A DNA stretch of 26,813 nucleotides from a virus. Of this stretch, positions 1,034 through 9,967 are shown one piece after another; within the stretch, counting starts at the first letter, position 1; every line of letters begins with the position of its first letter. The position numbers and the translations under genes were made by a program. A model generated the notes under the pieces. It was given only the letters and a program-made list of their open reading frames with translations, ran no database searches and had not been told where the DNA came from. The stretch lies in UHGV virus genome UHGV-0083306, one strand, 5' to 3'.

Positions 1034-3235
1034 TTACTGCTGTGGTTGTTGCTGAGTTGATTTTTGCAGGATGCTGCTGATGTCCATGCGCTGCGCATGG
1101 CCCTGTGCCTGACTTTTCAGGACAAGCTCCGCATCAGCACGGGCATTGTCTCCTTGCTGTTGCTGGAACTGTCCGAGCAGTTTCAGAGCCTCGCGGATAT
1201 CAGATTTCTGCTGGCTATCGGCAGATGCGAGGATTTTCACAACATTTGCCGCTGCAACCTGAGCATCAGTCTGTGCCTGGAATGCTTTAACCTGAATGGC
1301 TGCCTGTTCGTTCTGCGCTTTCTGCAATTCAGCCTGACCAGCAAGAAGCTGACCTTGCGCAGCAACCATAGCCGGATCCGGCTGACTGGCCTGTTGTTGT
1401 TTCGCCTGCTCAACCATCTGCTGTTCTTCTGGTGTTCTCGGCTTAATAACGCCAGACAGAAGCAACTGATTGCGGTTGTATTCTTTAAGGTCGTCCATCC
1501 CTTCGCCGTCCATATTGTCGAGAATCATCGACGATACAAGGTCATGCTTCGGCGTTCCTGGCGGGATAAGTGCCAGCATGGAAAGCAACGACTTAACCGT
1601 TGCATCACGGCGAGTAGCGAACGACTGACCGACATCGACAGTCACTTCATAGTTACCCTGCGAAAGGTCGTTAAGCGCGATAACCTTCCCTGTCTGACGG
1701 TCAACCACTTCACCAGTCATCAGCGCCACGTCATCGCTGCCATCCTCATTAACGATGCGCATTGGCGTATCGCTGCCATAGACTTCACGAGCCATAGAAA
1801 GCCACACGACGCCAGCACGGCGCATGGATTTAGCCATGTTGTCCATGTAGATATAGGACTGCGTGTCCATCCGGTTAAAGATGCTATCAACGGTATCGGT
1901 AGCGACGTTGCTCGGCATGTTCTCAAGCTGCGACGCACCTGTAATTTGCTGAATAGCCGTTCCGGTGTACTGCAATAGCCCGGCAAGAGCAGGAGGCATT
2001 TGTGTCGGAGGTGTCCAGCCAGCAACCTGAGCCTCTGAAATGACCGTTCCGTTTTTGTCCTTCTTGCTGGTCATGGGAAGAACTGCAGGTCTTTTCTTAT
2101 TCCTCTCTGCCCAGTGATTCATTAATGGACCGGGAATGAAATCAACATCCACGATAGGAATGCCATCACCGCCAGCCTGAGTAGCATTATCTGCAATCAT
2201 GGAAACCATCAGGTTCTCAAGACGCTGTGCATCCATCGCTTTTGCTGCGTGGCCTTCGATTCGCTCCTGATTATCAACAAATGAACGACGCCCATATACC
2301 GGGATGAGAGGAATATGTTCGCCCGGAATACGCTTCGGTTCTTCCAGCCATTCAGCGCCAGACAGAAGACCGCAATAAACTCGGCGTTTCTTCACCGTTC
2401 GCTCGCCAATCAGTTCGAATGCACCATCGGTCAGCTCGTCGACAATATCTTTGATTTGCTCTTCATCATAGATTGCCGTTTCTCCGCTGACAGGGTTACG
2501 CCATGCTGTGAGCTTCACCTTCTCTATGCGGACTTCGTAGTAGCGTCCAACATAGATGGCATCTGGCGTTGACCAGTCATATTGAGTGCCAGTGTCATCA
2601 CGAGAAAGGCTTGCCGCGATGGAATCAGGGTATTCAGCCTCGAACGCTTTAGGCGTCATGGAGAACATTTCCATAGCCCACATAGCATCAGAACGGTCAT
2701 ATTGCTTGCTGTCCTGATCGAAGAAGACGCATGTCGCTGGGTCGTAAACAGGAAGAAGGCTGATGCGTCGCTGCTCGTTACTCGGATCCATTTCATCTTC
2801 GTAATCGGCACACATGCGGAAACAACCGAATCCGCCCGTTACAGCATCATCAAATGCGTTATCACACGCTTCGCCACCGGATGTTTCCTGATAGTCAGCG
2901 CGGAATTTGCCGTTCATCTTTTCGGCTAACGCTTCCGATGCCTTATCGTCCTTCGGCCTGAATTTAACGCTGATGCGATTCTGTCGATACTCGCCAATGA
3001 TGCGATCACATTCACGGGCAATCTTATTCAATTCAAAACGCGGATAATGCTCGAACCTGCCTTCATCAAATGAGTAACCAGCGTTTGTGCTGCCTTCCCA
3101 CTGTGCGCCGGACACCCGGACGAAACGTTGAGCCTCAATAATCTGCTCACGCATATCCTGCGTTGCTGACCAGGCATTATCAAAGTTGCACAGCACCTTG
3201 CGATGCCAGTCAGTCATCTTTCTATCATCAGCCAT
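1034..3235 (-). CDS. portal protein (P22 gp1-like)
   Basis: ~733-aa ORF; C-terminal region (PEEQQ…DPAMV…GQAEL.KAQN…RMDI..ILQ) resembles the P22 portal barrel. Start taken at MADDRK (3235), which overlaps the terminase stop by 1 nt; the ORF track begins at 3250. Confidence 0.8.
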   Translation of the reverse strand: MADDRKMTDWHRKVLCNFDNAWSATQDMREQIIEAQRFVRVSGAQWEGSTNAGYSFDEGRFEHYPRFELNKIARECDRIIGEYRQNRISVKFRPKDDKASEALAEKMNGKFRADYQETSGGEACDNAFDDAVTGGFGCFRMCADYEDEMDPSNEQRRISLLPVYDPATCVFFDQDSKQYDRSDAMWAMEMFSMTPKAFEAEYPDSIAASLSRDDTGTQYDWSTPDAIYVGRYYEVRIEKVKLTAWRNPVSGETAIYDEEQIKDIVDELTDGAFELIGERTVKKRRVYCGLLSGAEWLEEPKRIPGEHIPLIPVYGRRSFVDNQERIEGHAAKAMDAQRLENLMVSMIADNATQAGGDGIPIVDVDFIPGPLMNHWAERNKKRPAVLPMTSKKDKNGTVISEAQVAGWTPPTQMPPALAGLLQYTGTAIQQITGASQLENMPSNVATDTVDSIFNRMDTQSYIYMDNMAKSMRRAGVVWLSMAREVYGSDTPMRIVNEDGSDDVALMTGEVVDRQTGKVIALNDLSQGNYEVTVDVGQSFATRRDATVKSLLSMLALIPPGTPKHDLVSSMILDNMDGEGMDDLKEYNRNQLLLSGVIKPRTPEEQQMVEQAKQQQASQPDPAMVAAQGQLLAGQAELQKAQNEQAAIQVKAFQAQTDAQVAAANVVKILASADSQQKSDIREALKLLGQFQQQQGDNARADAELVLKSQAQGHAQRMDISSILQKSTQQQPQQ

Positions 3236-4731
3236 CATCCAACTCCGCAAGGTATGTTGTAGCTTGAGTAATCAATCTCTTTAGGATCTTTGATGTCTCG
3301 CATCTGTATTGCAAAACGCCTCATCATGTAGCCATAGCGAACAGCAGAAAGGATGTCGTCATTTAGCTTGACGATCTTCCCGTTCTCATCGCGGTGATAC
3401 AGGCGAAACTCTTCAAAGAATGGCTCGCAGGTGTTAAATACCTTGAAACGACCGTCGAGCATCATGTCGCGTATCTCTGCTATCCCGGGTTCGACCGCAT
3501 TACCTCCATCAGGCCATGTTGCATGATCTGGCAACATATCGAACCCAGCGTCGGCGTATTGTTCCTTGAGCTGAGCGCCGCCTCCCTTTTCGTGCTGATG
3601 CCCGTCATGAGGCCAAGCCGTAGGGGTGTTTTTGCTCCATGCTTTAACAGCACTCCATGCCTCTGTCGCCTTCTTCTGTTTGGCCTTCCAGACGCGAGAA
3701 AGATAAATCACGTCCTCGTCTTTATCCCACCAAAGCTGGATGTGTGCCTGTGGGTGATCCCATCCGAAGTCCATTGCATTGATGACGTAGAAGTGATCAG
3801 GACACTCGAACGGCTGACACTTAATAGTCTCTTCCGGTATCTGGAAGATTCGACCACTACCCATCGTAGGAATACCGCGAGCACGCGCCTCTCTCTCATG
3901 CTCAGGATAGGATGCGATGATTTGCTCTTTCTGCTCGTCGGTATAGTGCTCAGCGTCATAGATGGTCATGTTGACCACTTTCTGCGACTTGCTGGGATTC
4001 TTCAGGAACTTGGTAACAACGTCAGACATCCCCATCAGCGGGGTAAACGTCAGAATTGAGAATTGCCCGTATTTGTTGGTACGGGTAAGACCTTCGCCAT
4101 AAATGCTGTATGGTGGCTCTTCGTCAAACCACACGCCGTGGATTGTGTCACCCTGCCAGCGAGCGCGGCCTTGCGAGTATGGTTTGAAGTAGCAGATTGA
4201 AATGCCATCTTCAACGCCATCAGTCGTGTGATGCTTAACCAGAAGATGATCAACAAGGTTCGGAAAGAAAGGAGACTTCTTCCAGCTAATGATGTCCTCT
4301 TTCGGTATTGAACCGTAGCCCGGCTCATCATTCTCTTCAATACGACCGCACAGGATGCGTTGAGTCGTTTTGGTTACCGTCTCGTTTGTCTCGCCGCCAA
4401 TCCAGAAGACAACAGGCTCATAGAAACGCTTACCTTTCCACTCACCGCCATATTTACCATCAGCAGGATAGCCTTTTGTGCCCGGATAACGCCCGGTAAG
4501 GTGAAACGCGACTTCAGCAGCACCAGTAAATGACTTACCAAGCTGGTTACCAGCCATAAAACAGCGCTCTGGATAGTCATGTCCGGCGTCGATGAACTCA
4601 CGCTGTTTGCTGTATGGCGTAAATTCATATAGCAGGTGTGTGTTCCGGTAGTTCTCTTCTTCTTCGAGTAGCTCGAGCAACTCGATTTGCTCTTCGTCGC
4701 TCAGGTTATCAAGAATCGCGTCCAGTTCCAC
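3235..4731 (-). CDS. terminase large subunit (P22 gp2-like)
   Basis: 498-aa ORF; N-terminus [29 protein letters not shown] and overall length match remembered P22 gp2; position between small terminase and portal. Confidence 0.88.
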
Positions 4732-5197
4732 GGTTGAATAGCTCCTTGATACGAGAGCGCCGCTTATCGCGATCTCCCTTATCAGGTGTCACGTCTTCAA
4801 CTTGCGACTGCTCTTTGAGGCCCAAATCACGGGCGATGATGTTAGCGTTGAGAAGGTCAGCGGCTGCGCCAGAGAATTTCTGGTCGTAGATGATGTCTTC
4901 CGCTCGTGATGTGACGTCAGAAAAACCTTCCATTGACCGGAAGGTTCCCCATGTTTGCCTGGTGATATCAAGGAAGGTACACAATCCTGAAATAGTCATG
5001 GCTCGCATCTTAGGGACATTAGCCTTAATTATTTCTCCCTGATATGAAAATACCTTACCCTCCCATAGCGGGTTATCATCAGCCCACTCGAAGTATTCAC
5101 AACAAGCAGCCCACAGCGCCTCAGGCGATTCGAATTTAGGATTTCGCCCATGACTACTGCGGGCCTCCCAAAATCGGTTGCCCTTTGGTGCTGCCAT
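4709..5197 (-). CDS. terminase small subunit (P22 gp3-like)
   Basis: 162-aa ORF starting [40 protein letters not shown], matching remembered P22 gp3; overlaps the start of the large subunit. Confidence 0.85.
4905..4930 (-). other. candidate pac site inside the small-terminase gene
   Basis: Coding-strand GAAGGTTTTTCTGACGTCACATCACG at codons 90-98, resembling the P22 pac sequence, which lies mid-gene 3 in P22. Confidence 0.4.
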
Positions 5198-5814: not shown

Positions 5815-6072
5815 CTACTTCGCTTTTGCTTCCGCTCGCTTACGCCGGCGCTCTTCTTTCCTCTCGGCTTTTGCCATGTCCATGAATGCCTGCATGATCG
5901 AGTTCCGCATCATGTAGCTAACAAAGTGATGATTGACACAGCCGTTGAGGCGCAGCTGCTCGCCAAACTCATCCACCGAGGCCAATGCTTCCATCATGCC
6001 CTTCTCGCCTTTCATGAACTCTGAGAAGTCGCGCCCCGCTCTGGAGGCGCATTCAATGACACGATCACTCAT
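5815..6072 (-). CDS. hypothetical protein (85 aa), basic C-terminus
   Basis: ORF whose ATG overlaps the stop of the upstream KilA-N gene (ATGA), suggesting translational coupling. Confidence 0.45.
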   Translation of the reverse strand: MSDRVIECASRAGRDFSEFMKGEKGMMEALASVDEFGEQLRLNGCVNHHFVSYMMRNSIMQAFMDMAKAERKEERRRKRAEAKAK

Positions 6073-6566
6073 CCCGGAAGCCCGGGGATCGTAATCTGCA
6101 GCTGGTTAGCCAGGGAGTTAATCTCAGCGACCAACACTGGCTTCGTATAGCGCCATGCTGCCAGCCCTTGTCCGCAGAAGCTCGCCATGTCTTTCTTCTG
6201 GTCAAACTCATGACATTTCATGTTGAGCTGCGCACTTAAGCTGTTGCGATGCTGAAGTTCTCCGGTGAAGTAGTCATCGAGGACTTTATAGGCCGCGTAC
6301 TTGAACCCGGGGTTTAACCAAGCCGCATAATCGTAAGCAACAAACTTCCCGCCATATGTTCCACCGTGTACACCGCGCTCAGTAAAAACCACAGATTCGT
6401 GGTTTTTCTCCAGCTCGGCTAAGAACTCTTTGGTCTGCTTGTTTCGCAGGTAGTGGTAAGGCGATTCAGATTCACTTTTACCACTGGCTTTCCACATATC
6501 AGTGAGGCAGATCATGCCATCTTCACCGATACGAATTGGTTGATTGAAGAGGGTTAATGATTTCAT
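6069..6566 (-). CDS. KilA-N domain protein
   Basis: 165-aa ORF with a KilA-N-like N-terminal motif (…GMICLTDMWKASGK…); common in lambdoid prophages. Confidence 0.6.
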   Translation of the reverse strand: MKSLTLFNQPIRIGEDGMICLTDMWKASGKSESESPYHYLRNKQTKEFLAELEKNHESVVFTERGVHGGTYGGKFVAYDYAAWLNPGFKYAAYKVLDDYFTGELQHRNSLSAQLNMKCHEFDQKKDMASFCGQGLAAWRYTKPVLVAEINSLANQLQITIPGLPG

Positions 6567-6704
6567 AGCGTGTACCTACTCTTTGAAATGAACCTTTGCC
6601 GCACAGGAAACCAGCCCACCGAGGCTCGCCAGCACTAACTGGTATCCTCAAAGGCCCATTCCAAAGGGGCAGGTTCGGTGTAAAAAACATGCGTTGCGGT
6701 ACGC

Positions 6705-6740
6705 ATTTATTGGAAAAAGCCCCGCATCGCGAGGCTCATT
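6705..6740 (-). terminator. possible intrinsic terminator downstream of Rz
   Basis: Minus-strand hairpin (GAGCCTCGC GAT GCGGGGCTT) followed by TTTTCC; a palindrome TGCGTTGCGGTACGCA lies beside it. Confidence 0.35.
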
Positions 6741-6767: not shown

Positions 6768-7205
6768 TTATTTCAGGCATTGCGTCCTGATGTACTCCTG
6801 CAGGTAGTTAACCTGCGCGGTTATCCTGTCGATTCCACTTCGTAGACGGTAATAATTGAGTTCAGCATCTGCTGTAAGTCTTGGGCTTTCTCCATCGCCC
6901 ATGCTGCTGGCTCCGGTCGTTGACTTTGCACAGGTGGCGGCGACTTGCATGCGCTTACGACCAGCAGAAACATCAGCACGGAGACTTTCGATAGTCGCGT
7001 TAGCATCAGCAAGCTCCTTTGTATATCTGGCGTCGAGTTCTGCTACATTGCGTTGACGTTTCTGCATGTCAGCGATAATGAATGCGGCCTTATCGCGCTG
7101 TTCTTTATAGGTAATGGCGTTATCACGGTAATGATTAACCGCCCATGACAGGCAGACGATGATGCAGATAACCAGAGCAGAGATAATCGCGGTTACTCTG
7201 CTCAT
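6768..7205 (-). CDS. Rz: Rz-like i-spanin
   Basis: 145-aa ORF; N-terminus [34 protein letters not shown] matches lambda Rz, the C-terminal half diverges; overlaps the R stop. Confidence 0.85.
6821..7012 (-). CDS. Rz1: Rz1-like o-spanin lipoprotein, embedded in Rz
   Basis: 63-aa ORF in the +1 frame inside Rz; signal peptide with lipobox LVVSAC, proline-rich mature region ([13 protein letters not shown]). Confidence 0.7.
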
Positions 7206-7678
7206 ACCTCAATCTCTCTGACCGCTCCGCCAGCCTCTTTGAATTTTGCAATCAGGCTGTCAGCCTTATGCTCGAACTGGCCATAACCAGCACCCGGCAG
7301 TGAAGCCCAGATATTGCTGCAACGGTCGATTGCCTGACGGATATCACCGCGATCAATCATCGGTAAAGCGCCACGCTCTTTAATCTGCTGCAATGCCACA
7401 GCGTCCTGGCTTTTCGGAGAGAAGTCTTTCAGGCCAAGCTGCTTGCGGTAGGCATCCCACCAACGGGAAAGAAGCTGGTAACGTCCGGCGGCTGTTGATT
7501 TGAGTTTGGGGTTTAGCGTGACAAGTTTGCGAGGGTGATCGGAGTAATCAGTGAATAGCTCTCCGCCAACAATGACGTCATAACCATGATTTCTGGTTTT
7601 CTGACGTCCGTTATCAGTTCCCTCTGACCACGCCAGCATATCGAGGAACGCCTTACGTTGATTATTGATTTCCACCAT
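7202..7678 (-). CDS. R: endolysin, lambda R-type lytic transglycosylase
   Basis: 158-aa [42 protein letters not shown]… matching lambda R. Confidence 0.9.
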
Positions 7679-7985
7679 CTTCTACTCCGGCTTTTTTAGC
7701 AGCGAAGCGTTTGATAAGCGAACCTATCGAGTCAGTACCGATGTAGCCGATGAACACGCTCGTTATATAAGCGAGATTGCTACTTAGTCCTGCGAAGTCG
7801 AGAAGGTCACGAATGAACCAGGCGATAATGGCGCACATCGTTGCGTCGATTACTGTTTTTGTAAACGCACCGCCATTATATCTGCCGCGAAGGTACGCCA
7901 TTGCAAACGCAAGGATTGCCCCGATGCCTTGTTCCTTTGCCGCAAGAATGGCGGCTAACAGGTCATGTTTTTCTGGCATCTTCAT
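7662..7985 (-). CDS. S: holin, lambda S-type
   Basis: 107-aa [46 protein letters not shown]… matching lambda S, including the Met1-Lys2-Met3 dual start. Confidence 0.9.
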
Positions 7986-8384
7986 GTCTTACCCCCAATA
8001 AGGGGATTTGCTCTATTTAATTAGGAATAAGGTCGATTACTGATAGAACAAATCCAGGCTACTGTGTTTAGTAATCAGATTTGTTCGTGACCGATATGCA
8101 CGGGCAAAACGGCAGGAGGTTGTTAGCGCAACCTCCTGCCACCCGCGTTCACGAAGGTCATGTGTAGAAGGCCGCAGCGTAACTATCACTGATGAATTCA
8201 GGATAGCCAGTGGCTACGGCTCAGTTTGGGTCGTGCTGTTGCTGGGCGGCGATGACGCCTGTACGCATTTGGTGATCCGGTTCTGCTTCCGGTATTCGCT
8301 TAATTCAGCACAACGGAAAGAGCACTGGCTAACCAGGCTCGCCGACTCTTCACGATTATCGACTCAATGCTCTTACCTGTTGTG

Positions 8385-8452
8385 CAGATATAAAAAATCC
8401 CGAAACCGTTATGCAGGCTCTAACTATTACCTGCGAACTGTTTCGGGATTGC
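8385..8452 (-). terminator. tR'-like intrinsic terminator (end of the 6S-type late leader)
   Basis: Minus-strand AATCCCGAAAC…GGTTTCGGGATTTTTTAT hairpin plus U-run, matching the remembered lambda tR'. Confidence 0.7.
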
Positions 8453-8580
8453 ATTTTGCAGACCTCTCTGCCTGCGATGGTTGGAGTTCCAGACGATACG
8501 TCGAAGTGACCAACTAGGCGGAATCGGTAGTAAGCGCCGCCTCTTTTCATCTCACTACCACAACGAGCGAATTAACCCAT

Positions 8581-9072
8581 CTATCCCATACTGGAGAATT
8601 CACCATGATATTTTATCCTGGCATTTTCCATTGCCTTTCTAGCCTCCTCGATATCGTCAAAACACCCTACATGAATCCTTTTACCATTGACTCTAATTCT
8701 TCCAACCCACTTGTTTGCAGCAGAATTAAAAGTCACCCCCTTCACACCAGATGAATTGTTTTTCCTCATCTTGCTGTTCCATGAGTTTTGAGTGTTAGTA
8801 ACAACACGAAGATTGGCTATCCGGTTATCAGACCTATCACCATTAATATGGTCAATCACATCGGTTGGCCAATCATTGTAAACCATCAGCCATGCAATTC
8901 TATGGACATATAGCCGCATTCCATAAAGTTTTACCTGCAGATATCCATTGGTTTTATAGCCAACAACAGCGCCATAGATAAATCTAGAGGACCGAGGTGG
9001 ATTCTTCCATGTAAGAATTCCAGTATCTGGATTGTAATTAAAAAGTCTCAATGCATCTTCACGTTTTAACAT
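8581..9072 (-). CDS. HNH endonuclease with AP2 domain (homing-endonuclease-like), inserted in the late leader
   Basis: 163-aa ORF with HNH motif DVIDHINGDRSDNRIANLRVVTNTQN and AP2-like C-terminus (SGVKGVTF…KWVGRIRVNGKRIHVGCFDDIEEA); visibly AT-rich; lies between pR' and tR'. Confidence 0.8.
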   Translation of the reverse strand: MLKREDALRLFNYNPDTGILTWKNPPRSSRFIYGAVVGYKTNGYLQVKLYGMRLYVHRIAWLMVYNDWPTDVIDHINGDRSDNRIANLRVVTNTQNSWNSKMRKNNSSGVKGVTFNSAANKWVGRIRVNGKRIHVGCFDDIEEARKAMENARIKYHGEFSSMG

Positions 9073-9272
9073 AGGCGAACCACATAGATATTAGAGCCTG
9101 CTGACATAGAAATATCACCACGAGAGAAGTCGCCAAAAGCGATATTTCTCAGGCTCTATTCCTATGTGCTCTCGAGTTTATGATGCGCATGTCAGTGCGC
9201 TTAGAACTTAAAGATGAGGTGGGTAAAAGCTTAAAGAATGTGAACGGATATAAATCTGCCATTCTTGGGTCA

Positions 9273-9300
9273 AATTTACCCAATTTTATTCAATAAGTCA
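9273..9300 (-). promoter_or_regulatory. pR' late promoter with qut-type initial transcribed region
   Basis: Minus strand: -35 TTGACT (9295-9300), 16-bp spacer, -10 TAAATT (9273-9278), just downstream of the Q stop; AAGAAT -10-like pause element follows. Confidence 0.6.
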
Positions 9301-9343
9301 ATATCATGCCGTTAATATGTTGCCATCCGTGGCAATCATGCTG

Positions 9344-9967
9344 CTAACGTGTGACCGCATTCAAAATGTTGTCTGCGATTGACTCTTCTTTGTGGCATTG
9401 CACCACCAGAGCGTCATACAGCGGCTTAACAGTGCGTGACCAGGTGGGTTGGGTAAGGTTTGGGATTAGCATCGTCACAGCGCGATATGCTGCGCTTGCT
9501 GGCATCCTTGAATAGCCGACGCCTTTGCATCTTCCGCACTCTTTCTCGACAACTCTCCCCCACAGCTCTGTTTTGGCAATATCAACCGCACGGCCTGTAC
9601 CGTGGCAATCTCTGCATCTTGCCCCCGGCGTCGCGGCACTACGGCAATAATCCGCATAAGCGAATGTTGCGAGCACTTGCAGTACCTTTGCCTTAGTATT
9701 TCCTTCAAGCTTTGCCACACCACGGTATTTCCCCGATACCTTGTGTGCAAATTGCATCAGATAGTTGATAGCCTTTTGTTTGTCGTTCTGGCTGAGTTCG
9801 TGCTTACCGCAGAATGCAGCCATACCGAATCCGGCTTGTGATTGCGCCATCCCCATAGCAGCCATCACATCAGTACCGGAAAGAGAGTCAGAAGCCGTGG
9901 CCCGTGGTGAGTCGCTCATCATCGGGCTTTTTGGCGAATGAAATTTAGCTACGCTTTCGAGTCTCAT
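9344..9967 (-). CDS. Q: late antiterminator Q (lambda-type)
   Basis: 207-aa ORF MRLESVAKFHSPKSPMMSDSPRATASDSLSGTDV… with the zinc-finger cysteines (CRDCHGTG…CGRCKG); matches lambda Q. Confidence 0.9.
   Translation of the reverse strand: MRLESVAKFHSPKSPMMSDSPRATASDSLSGTDVMAAMGMAQSQAGFGMAAFCGKHELSQNDKQKAINYLMQFAHKVSGKYRGVAKLEGNTKAKVLQVLATFAYADYCRSAATPGARCRDCHGTGRAVDIAKTELWGRVVEKECGRCKGVGYSRMPASAAYRAVTMLIPNLTQPTWSRTVKPLYDALVVQCHKEESIADNILNAVTR

Follow-up and report, generated by a model that had tools for sequence, protein, structure and literature searches.

A Covariation-Supported Leader RNA and an HNH-AP2 Endonuclease Gene between pR' and tR' of a Lambda-Like Late Operon

Among the closest described counterparts of the locus reported here are the 6S leader of phage lambda, lying between pR' and tR', and StxS of the Stx phages (PMC7547250). 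We analyzed a 26,813-nucleotide (nt) stretch of the virus genome UHGV-0083306 (the window, by which we mean the whole of that stretch), which likewise has Q, pR', a Q-binding element, a 6S body, and tR', with all late-region features on the minus strand. It differs from lambda in that the first 4 nt of the late leader are replaced and the predicted transcript is an RNA of ~874 nt with a translatable gene, not a noncoding RNA of ~0.2 kb. The gene codes for an endonuclease with HNH_3 and AP2 domains and is preceded by a structured leader RNA belonging to a widespread family. This RNA family is the more important result, and the HNH-AP2 cassette in the pR'-tR' leader is a new variant of known things.

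Several other systems share individual features with this locus. The phage HNH-AP2 homing endonucleases (HNH_3 plus AP2; PHROG 99) have the same architecture, size, H...N...N motif, intergenic site, and patchy presence, the difference being that homing by the present gene is a prediction; to our knowledge, neither a pR'-tR' leader location nor fusion to a structured leader is a feature of this free-standing family. Lambdoid morons are also variable, dispensable genes among conserved late genes and are often bounded by terminators. Classical morons have their own promoter and a downstream terminator, whereas the cassettes described here have a terminator upstream and a structured RNA fused to the start codon as their constant part, and a promoter scan detected no promoter in the conserved part of the leader cassette. 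The P1/P7 c4 RNA (Rfam C4, c4-a1b1), P22 sar, and Salmonella IsrK are structured leader RNAs of antirepressor-type genes that likewise involve a ribosome-binding site; the leader RNA here lies in cis and in sense as one compact double pseudoknot, rather than being an antisense or processed trans RNA, and has no Rfam match. The HK022 put antiterminator RNAs are also cis-acting structured RNAs in a lambdoid operon close to terminators, but put consists of two plain stem-loops, a fold unlike that of the leader RNA, and the put sites are located in the early operons, in which model R1 of the leader RNA finds no match; its single HK022 match (38556-38689) is past the lysis genes.

The leader RNA fold

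In alignment A2, the HNH coding sequence is less well conserved than the ~130 nt that precede it. The original prediction had noted an inverted repeat here, AGAGCCTG...CAGGCTCT, which is indeed present (9157..9150 and 9100..9093); it is not a plain hairpin, however, but one helix of a predicted five-helix RNA with two pseudoknots. The elements of this copy (copy 1) are as follows.

9200..9072, minus strand: structured leader RNA, copy 1, 129 nt (model R1, 106 bits, E ~1e-23; covariation; minimum free energy fold, z = -3.6)
9200-9185, minus strand: P0, hairpin
9174-9169 with 9126-9121, minus strand: P1, pseudoknot
9168-9162 with 9087-9081, minus strand: P2 outer, the closing helix
9158-9150 with 9100-9092, minus strand: P2 inner
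9149-9140 with 9117-9108, minus strand: P3
9195-9189 with 9107-9101, minus strand: P0 loop, second pseudoknot

In the 5'-to-3' direction, the P0 hairpin is followed by the 5' strands of P1, P2 outer, P2 inner, and P3 and by the P3 loop (often GGUGGCGACC); then come the 3' strands of P1 and P3, a 6- to 7-nt partner of the P0 loop, the 3' strands of P2 inner and P2 outer, a Shine-Dalgarno (SD) sequence, and the AUG. The first pseudoknot arises because the P1 3' strand lies within the P3 loop, and the second pairs the P0 loop with the 6- to 7-nt downstream strand. Folding copy 1 by energy minimization reproduces P2 and P3 (z = -3.6).

Covariation supports all of these helices. A MAFFT alignment of 75 distinct sequences has 87.5% of cells paired, compared with 79.3% in column shuffles and 33 to 49% (30 to 53% at the widest) with slid partners, and 22 of 43 pairs have changed on both sides, a number reached in 0 of 500 shuffles. 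The covariance model used for a further alignment was built from the nested helices only, so that both pseudoknots were tested without bias. In that alignment, 32 of 43 pairs have changed on both sides (17.0 ± 1.6 in shuffles; 0/500) and there are 73 pair types (57.4 in shuffles; 0/500), with both-side changes at every pair of the two pseudoknot helices (7/7 and 6/6). The commonest subtype is one column off register in both pseudoknots in the two alignments, and the per-helix paired fractions there (67 to 83%) are thus underestimates. A register-free script, also run, recovered nine or more distinct P0-loop sequences that all have a perfect partner, including UCUCAC/GUGAGA, UCGCA/UGCGA, CUGACAU/AUGUCAG, CUGACGU/ACGUCAG, CUAGCAU/AUGCUAG, UCGUAC/GUACGA, UCACAC/GUGUGA, and CCGCA/UGCGG.

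Read on the sense strand, G-U pairs occur at 20 of the 30 nested pair positions and A-C at six, with 71 of the 76 A-C cells at two fixed sites. The spread of the G-U pairs and the unvarying orientation point to an RNA of the sense strand; an antisense RNA was rejected on the G-U distribution and the context, and a coding sequence was rejected since the subtypes are separated by indels and frame changes. The two fixed sites are pairs 44-131 and 52-123 of alignment A5, where the E. coli/Salmonella subtypes seen most often (51 and 20 distinct sequences) have a fixed C-A mismatch and others a Watson-Crick pair; they may be A+-C wobbles or functional noncanonical sites. Judged by its covariation, the leader is an RNA fold of five helices, including two pseudoknots.

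Spread of the leader RNA and the genes behind it

Genome and metagenome collections scanned with a 19-mer gave mostly chance matches in a Firmicutes gene, and the only genuine ones were in Xenorhabdus beddingii and E. coli-like contigs. The X. beddingii genome has the leader sequence three times, each before a non-HNH gene; a blastn search of the phage collection with the Xenorhabdus-type leader gave no match. Degenerate pattern scans of IMG/VR identified at least 120 contigs with the family, and the collected loci contain 165 leader instances with 89 distinct sequences. Two matches to a looser pattern (L054 and L055) were discarded as false positives. With one common subtype as the query, blastn identified 157 phage records, of which 77 are Stx-converting phages; others are phi80 (before rha), HK620, HK106 (before a GIY-YIG-type gene), HK639, Sf101, CUS-3, and P22-like phages. 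The same query matches 956 of the 5,426 complete genomes of our E. coli survey (∼18%).

The leader is nowhere annotated as an RNA in the records found, and Rfam 15 (4,227 families) has nothing relevant at E values up to 10 in window positions 8300-9400 or up to 1 in 10 diverse loci. Our literature searches turned up no account of such an RNA ahead of rha, KilA, or HNH genes, and the element is apparently undescribed. As judged from covariation, the RNA family is real, and it is very widespread and absent from Rfam 15. We note that two diverged members (L123:343-459 and L058:8515-8622) are without the GGUGGCGACC segment of the P3 loop yet keep P1, P2, P3, and the P0-loop pseudoknot; the fold can thus do without this block.

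The leader always ends 6 to 12 nt ahead of a start codon. Of 59 distinct tails, 58 have an SD-like tetramer, 6 to 12 nt from the start codon, that begins in the 3' strand of the closing helix. A covarying sense-strand fold and a ribosome-binding site coupled to it are features also expected of a riboswitch, and the leader resembles translational riboswitches and pseudoknotted regulators of 5' untranslated regions in its multihelix, aptamer-like fold, its covariation, and the SD sequence in the closing helix. The likeness is one of fold and SD position, and the downstream genes are functionally unrelated, which is unusual for a metabolite sensor. The open reading frames (ORFs) behind the leader are mutually unrelated and code for Rha (93 instances), HNH-AP2 (29), and T5orf172/MUG113 (13) proteins, as well as P22_AR_N, KilA-N, ANT, and Acb2/Tad1 proteins, a membrane protein, and proteins of unknown families. 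In X. beddingii (L028:1147-1517), the gene behind the leader codes for an Acb2/Tad1-type protein of 80 aa (Pfam Acb2_Tad1_hairpin, 4e-14), a sponge that takes up cyclic-nucleotide defense signals; the slot thus also houses antidefense genes.

Leader cassettes are positioned after Q/pR', between the endolysin gene and Rz, or after Rz. The window has a second copy in the last of these positions, just past Rz and a terminator.

6735..6714, minus strand: intrinsic terminator downstream of Rz, GCCTCGC GAT GCGGGGC TTTTT, read from the sequence
6704..6571, minus strand: structured leader RNA, copy 2 (model R1 with filters off, 47 bits, E 7.5e-10; 36.7% identity to copy 1)
6566..6069, minus strand: accessory gene with KilA-N and ORF11CD3 domains, abutted by copy 2 (Pfam KilA-N, 1.3e-15; ORF11CD3, 2.4e-13)

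Copy 2 keeps every helix through compensatory changes. Its P0 hairpin is followed by GUUUUUU and was picked up by the terminator scan (window 6706-6689, minus strand), and P0 of copy 2 might double as a weak terminator. The terminator type found after Rz is conserved, precedes most members of the leader family, and is labeled a terminator in the phi80 annotation; by a crude pattern, a terminator-like hairpin lies upstream of 123 of 168 leader instances, and none precedes copy 1. Lambda tR' (GAGCCTGCATAACGGTTTCGGGATTTTTTATATCTG; window 8392-8450) resembles this conserved terminator (GAGCCTCGC...GCGGGGCTTTTTTATATCTG; e.g., window 6714-6740), and from their sequences the two may be of common origin; model R1 finds no leader element past tR' in lambda.

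Two leader copies are also present in phi80 and in an Stx2a phage. Those of phi80 (NC_021190; L178) are at 2501-2626 and 4095-4204, and its rha coding sequence is annotated from 2593, inside the first copy, so that the start codon has presumably been called wrongly. Such calls are invited by a GTG that lies in frame in the pseudoknot strand of the commonest subtype, and several 'Rha family' features of the Prokaryotic Genome Annotation Pipeline (PGAP) overlap the leader. The Stx2a phage (LC645409; L179) has copies at 1147-1276 and 2513-2643, where there is no annotation. Stx2a phages have one cassette, with a P22_AR_N-type antirepressor gene behind its leader, in the interval from the endolysin gene to Rz and another, with Rha, past Rz.

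The HNH-AP2 cassette in the late leader

The remaining late-region features of the window are listed below.

9967..9344, minus strand: Q antiterminator gene, lambda type, 207 aa (Pfam Antiterm, 6e-58; 99.8% identity to lambda over the queried part)
9301..9273, minus strand: pR' late promoter, with -35 TTGACT, a 17-nt spacer with the Q-binding element, and -10 TAAATT (promoter scan; the same as lambda pR' in alignment A1)
9266..9259, minus strand: putative +1 and -10-like pause element, AAGAAT then GG, with the left ATGG (lambda alignment)
9258..9201, minus strand: replacement initial transcribed region, GC 33%, without a terminator (not in lambda; common to 16 HNH-bearing and 3 scar-bearing E. 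coli genomes)
9072..8581, minus strand: HNH_3 + AP2 endonuclease gene, 163 aa, stop codon TAG at 8583-8581 (Pfam, PHROG 99)
8580..8392, minus strand: lambda 6S-RNA body from +5 (ATGGGTTAATTCG...) to the end of tR' (the same as lambda; fold)
8448..8398 and 8397..8392, minus strand: tR' hairpin and U run, both intact (lambda identity; fold)
7985..7662, 7678..7202, and 7205..6768, minus strand: lysis genes S, R, and Rz (ORF list; annotation of the near-identical locus L001)

The original prediction placed an HNH-AP2 gene here, and profile searches bear it out, with both domains over their gathering scores: HNH_3 matches at 5.7e-17 (61.5 bits; cutoff, 24.8) and AP2 at 5e-08, barely over its cutoff (33.6 bits; cutoff, 33.3). 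PHROG 99 ('HNH endonuclease') matches at 4.7e-76, and the AP2 region aligns with the AP2 repeats of plant WRI1. Among 15 homologues with 39 to 86% identity, H57, D74, H75, N77, N87, and N99 are invariant and N96 is almost so. A search of NCBIfam with the protein gave no match, and a defense-system search gave only a weak match to PADLOC 'HEase'. The identical protein WP_000919140.1 is an 'HNH endonuclease' in PGAP and is coded between an antitermination protein gene and a holin gene. By these profiles and motifs, ORF 9072..8581 is an intact HNH_3 + AP2 endonuclease gene; its homing role is inferred from the protein family. The HNH homologues (86, 74, 66, 62, and 56% identity) are all ∼250 to 270 nt 3' of a Q-type gene and are upstream of lysis genes wherever the contig reaches far enough; the Q genes vary in length (207 to 276 aa). 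In Xenorhabdus bovienii (L043), the HNH-AP2 ORF (1385-1954) shares its 3' end with a tRNA gene (1940-2012; Rfam tRNA, 57.6 bits); with the tRNA genes at L002 and L003 described below, this shows the region 3' of Q to be a slot for tRNAs as well.

From the Q stop codon to -4, the window is the same as lambda, and it has the Q gene, the pR' hexamers, and the Q-binding element between them that characterize a lambda-type Q/qut system. The predicted break in lambda-like sequence at about 9259 and its resumption at 8580 are confirmed: the query flanks are contiguous in lambda (J02459) over 469 bp at 44403-44871, with 99.8% identity and a 4-bp overlap, ATGG. The predicted AT-rich ∼680 bp is a 678-bp segment (9258..8581) with 40.1% GC, compared with 47.5% for the whole window, and the predicted growth of the pR'-tR' distance from ∼0.2 to ∼0.9 kb agrees with the ∼874 nt here (with +1 at ∼9266 placed by homology to lambda) versus 194 nt in lambda. 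Promoter and terminator scans found nothing terminator-like between pR' and the HNH gene start at 9072.

The segment is a presence/absence polymorphism: the flanking Q/pR'/6S query matches 1,275 of the 5,426 E. coli genomes, of which 16 carry the segment, always between a lambda-type pR' and tR', and 1,259 are without it. The flanks are contiguous in lambda and in 24/24 of the insert-less E. coli genome matches listed. A megablast search with 9450..8300 against 50,697 phage records matched 141 of them, all in the flanks only with the middle of the query uncovered, and the HNH segment is in none of the 50,697; 17 IMG/VR contigs also carry it. E. coli LR-64-1 and JNE131328 have an insert 100% identical to that of the window. 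The HNH-AP2 cassette in the pR'-tR' leader is rare and dispensable. In several E. coli genomes the downstream homology stops just past tR', and the pR'-to-tR' block thus travels as a unit among different lysis modules.

Three further E. coli genomes, found in a sensitive search with the insert only, share merely its first 109 nt. In L002 and L003, pR' leads through ...ATAGGAATAGAGCCTG straight into the tR' 3' arm (CATAACGGTTTCGGGATTTTTTAT), after which come tRNA genes. The 9-bp TAGAGCCTG is present twice in the window (9158..9150, and 8422..8414 within the tR' region), and the three genomes are thus deletion derivatives in which recombination between these repeats has removed the HNH gene along with the 6S body. 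We considered and rejected the possibility that L002 and L003 represent an empty site with an alternative leader without HNH, as only the RNA 5' half is present, fused to the tR' 3' arm at TAGAGCCTG.

L002:2990-3125 (E. coli RMDEC465) and L003:2990-3165 (FDAARGOS_943): cassette-loss scar, with the RNA 5' half joined at TAGAGCCTG to the lambda tR' 3' arm

Both scars are followed by tRNA-Asn and tRNA-Thr genes, and L003 additionally carries an inserted GC-rich hairpin of 46 bp (GTGACTGCTCCCCGCCCTGTCGGGCGAGGG...) and lacks 8 bp of the tR' arm.

The junctions are less simple than had been proposed. The original prediction extended lambda homology up to ATGG and took an ATGG repeat as marking both junctions; the junction region is right and the 4 bp are common to both flanks, but the match to lambda ends before ATGG (window CCCAAGAATGG, lambda CTCAACGATGG), all HNH-bearing copies reading AAGAATGG where lambda reads AACGATGG. 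The window has AAGAAT (4/6 matches to TATAAT) where lambda has AACGAT (3/6), which by comparison with lambda qut we take to be a pause element, and from +9 it is unrelated to lambda. Because the homology ends before it, ATGG is best read from the alignment as the last part of the -10-like pause element proper to each leader (AAGAAT|GG versus AACGAT|GG) and not as a target-site duplication. Moreover, the TAGAGCCTG repeats flank the HNH gene and 6S body as well as ATGG does, and the hybrid expected of precise excision at ATGG, AAGAATGGGTTAATTCG, was not found in IMG/VR. The substitutions beside the junction (CCCAAGAATGG versus CTCAACGATGG) fit coconversion and also fit a different leader allele.

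A simple 680-bp insertion is thus not upheld, the segment being a composite of a different initial transcribed region, a structured-RNA leader, and an ORF. Loci L005 and L006 have pR', leader, RNA, HNH gene, and terminator colinear with the window at ∼15 to 25% divergence; L005 also has a diverged homologue of the replacement initial transcribed region and a diverged 6S-like body, with the whole block ∼15 to 20% diverged throughout. This layout is thus an old allele that diverged as a block rather than a recent hit into lambda. In L005, L006, and the window, there is a terminator after the HNH gene and none before it, and in the Xenorhabdus-type loci L043 and L044 the terminator is upstream of the cassette. 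Copy 1 has 72 to 77% identity to Xenorhabdus-type leaders and 51 to 59% to E. coli types, and because of this and the AT richness, the sequence suggests that the cassette was imported from an AT-rich Morganellaceae/Xenorhabdus-type phage lineage.

Function of the cassette and competing explanations

We think it probable that 9258..8581 is a modular accessory cassette, composed of a structured leader and a variable ORF, in an unusual location between pR' and tR', and that it operates as follows. PR' is 'always active' in lysogens, with transcription terminated just downstream (PMC7547250), and there is no terminator-like site before 9072, suggesting that in lysogens pR' would constitutively produce an RNA of ∼0.87 kb that carries the HNH message and ends at tR'. 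After Q loading, the same leader RNA would form the 5' end of the late transcript. With the SD sequence within the closing helix, the folded leader would hide the ribosome-binding site and gate translation of a (probably toxic) DNA-binding protein or nuclease gene, with a ligand, a protein, or cotranscriptional kinetics opening the gate or stabilizing the fold; if HNH transcription is constitutive, the RNA fold would be the main brake on nuclease translation. The endonuclease would then cut related incoming phage DNA without the cassette, resulting in homing or interphage competition, and cassettes would move between late-operon intergenic sites by recombination at the conserved leader and terminator. 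We therefore take leader plus ORF to be a portable late-operon cassette, in which the leader would be a cis-acting switch hiding the ribosome-binding site.

Several points weigh against this interpretation. The SD-like motifs, 6 to 12 nt from the start codon, are weak (AAGG, TAGG, and GTGG), and gating is proposed from the SD position. Constitutive HNH transcription, Q loading at AAGAAT instead of AACGAT, and Rho independence of the 0.87-kb RNA are likewise steps that the model presumes. Neither a target site nor a conversion tract of the HNH-AP2 nuclease was found, and most leader members precede non-nuclease genes, so that the RNA is not tied to homing. As to the fold, the commonest subtype has two fixed C-A mismatches, the apparent invariance of TGGCGAC, TTTCT, and CAGRCTC is an ascertainment effect because the collection patterns force these blocks, and in four diverged members found by the model TGGCGAC is missing or altered.

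The original prediction explained the locus as a simple, recent homing insertion at ATGG into the lambda late leader, with a plain stabilizing hairpin upstream. Contiguity of the flanks in lambda with a shared ATGG, the AT richness of the segment, and a protein family that includes homing endonucleases are all consistent with this. It is largely refuted, and we judge it unlikely, as lambda homology ends upstream of ATGG (AAGAATGG versus AACGATGG), the divergence of the L005 block, including its 6S-like body and terminator, shows the layout to be old, the precise-excision hybrid AAGAATGGGTTAATTCG is not in IMG/VR, and the 'hairpin' is part of a covarying double-pseudoknot family serving many unrelated genes. 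A further explanation is that the HNH protein has a housekeeping function, neither selfish nor competitive, such as terminase-associated packaging: HNH proteins coded next to the terminase genes of HK97-like phages are needed for cos cleavage, but here ten ORFs and a distance of 3.4 kb separate the gene from those for terminase (4709..5197 and 3235..4731), the gene is missing from 1,259 flank-matching E. coli genomes and has an HNH_3 + AP2 architecture, and other phages hold Rha, KilA-N, and other genes in the same slot, making such a function highly improbable.

Other explanations concern the leader itself, for which a switch, a ribozyme, and an adaptor are candidate mechanisms. It could work as DNA, either as a boundary or linker for recombination of modules or as an element that binds a protein or serves as a promoter. 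The idea of linker sequences in lambdoid phages is well established, and the leader is exactly at the mosaic junctions where the downstream gene switches and is the site of deletion between the TAGAGCCTG repeats. Recombination anchors need identity, however, and not compensatory pairing, and members with 37% identity keep five helices; G-U pairs, confined to the sense strand, extend over 20 pair positions, neither the orientation nor the spacing from the start codon varies, and a promoter scan of copy 1 gave no sigma-70-like promoter. We therefore regard a purely DNA-level role as quite improbable. A self-cleaving ribozyme or a processing/stability element, which would free the accessory message from the late transcript or shield its 5' end, is likewise an unlikely explanation, if slightly less so: compact double-pseudoknot folds of ∼110 to 130 nt are typical of small ribozymes, several classes of which are common in phages, and the element follows a terminator and opens each cassette. 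There is no Rfam ribozyme match at E values up to 10, though, the helix order is by our reading unlike that of the hepatitis delta virus, twister, hatchet, and pistol ribozymes, and the link between the SD sequence and the closing helix is better explained by translational control, although both roles are compatible.

A broader reading of the leader as a translational gate is tentative, and we consider it plausible without thinking it likely: that the leader represents a new functional RNA class (a doubly pseudoknotted riboswitch, a protein-responsive switch, or a ribozyme) forming a shared module for the control and the mobility of a hypervariable late-operon slot in lambdoid phages of the Enterobacterales, the lysogen here being permanently armed with a gated endonuclease. 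If this is true, the slot would hold antirepressor-type regulators, nucleases, and the sponge Acb2, directed against the cyclic-oligonucleotide-based antiphage signaling system (CBASS) and Thoeris, in phi80, HK022, P22-like, and Stx2a-converting phages, and the placement of a cassette upstream of tR' would turn a constitutive 6S-type leader into an mRNA.

The pR'-6S-tR' region is a textbook regulatory unit, and an allele bearing a nuclease gene alters the expression expected of the lysogen; it is also a natural test of how much sequence change Q loading tolerates past +8. What had appeared to be a hairpin exposes an unannotated five-helix RNA family that marks the 5' edge of exchangeable cassettes for regulators, nucleases, and antidefense sponges, and annotation should improve where rha-type start codons are called inside the leader. 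If the leader is mainly a recombination or expression adaptor, it would explain the shuffling of promoterless accessory genes among late operons; if it is a switch, it would provide a handle on the timing with which temperate phages deploy their conflict genes.

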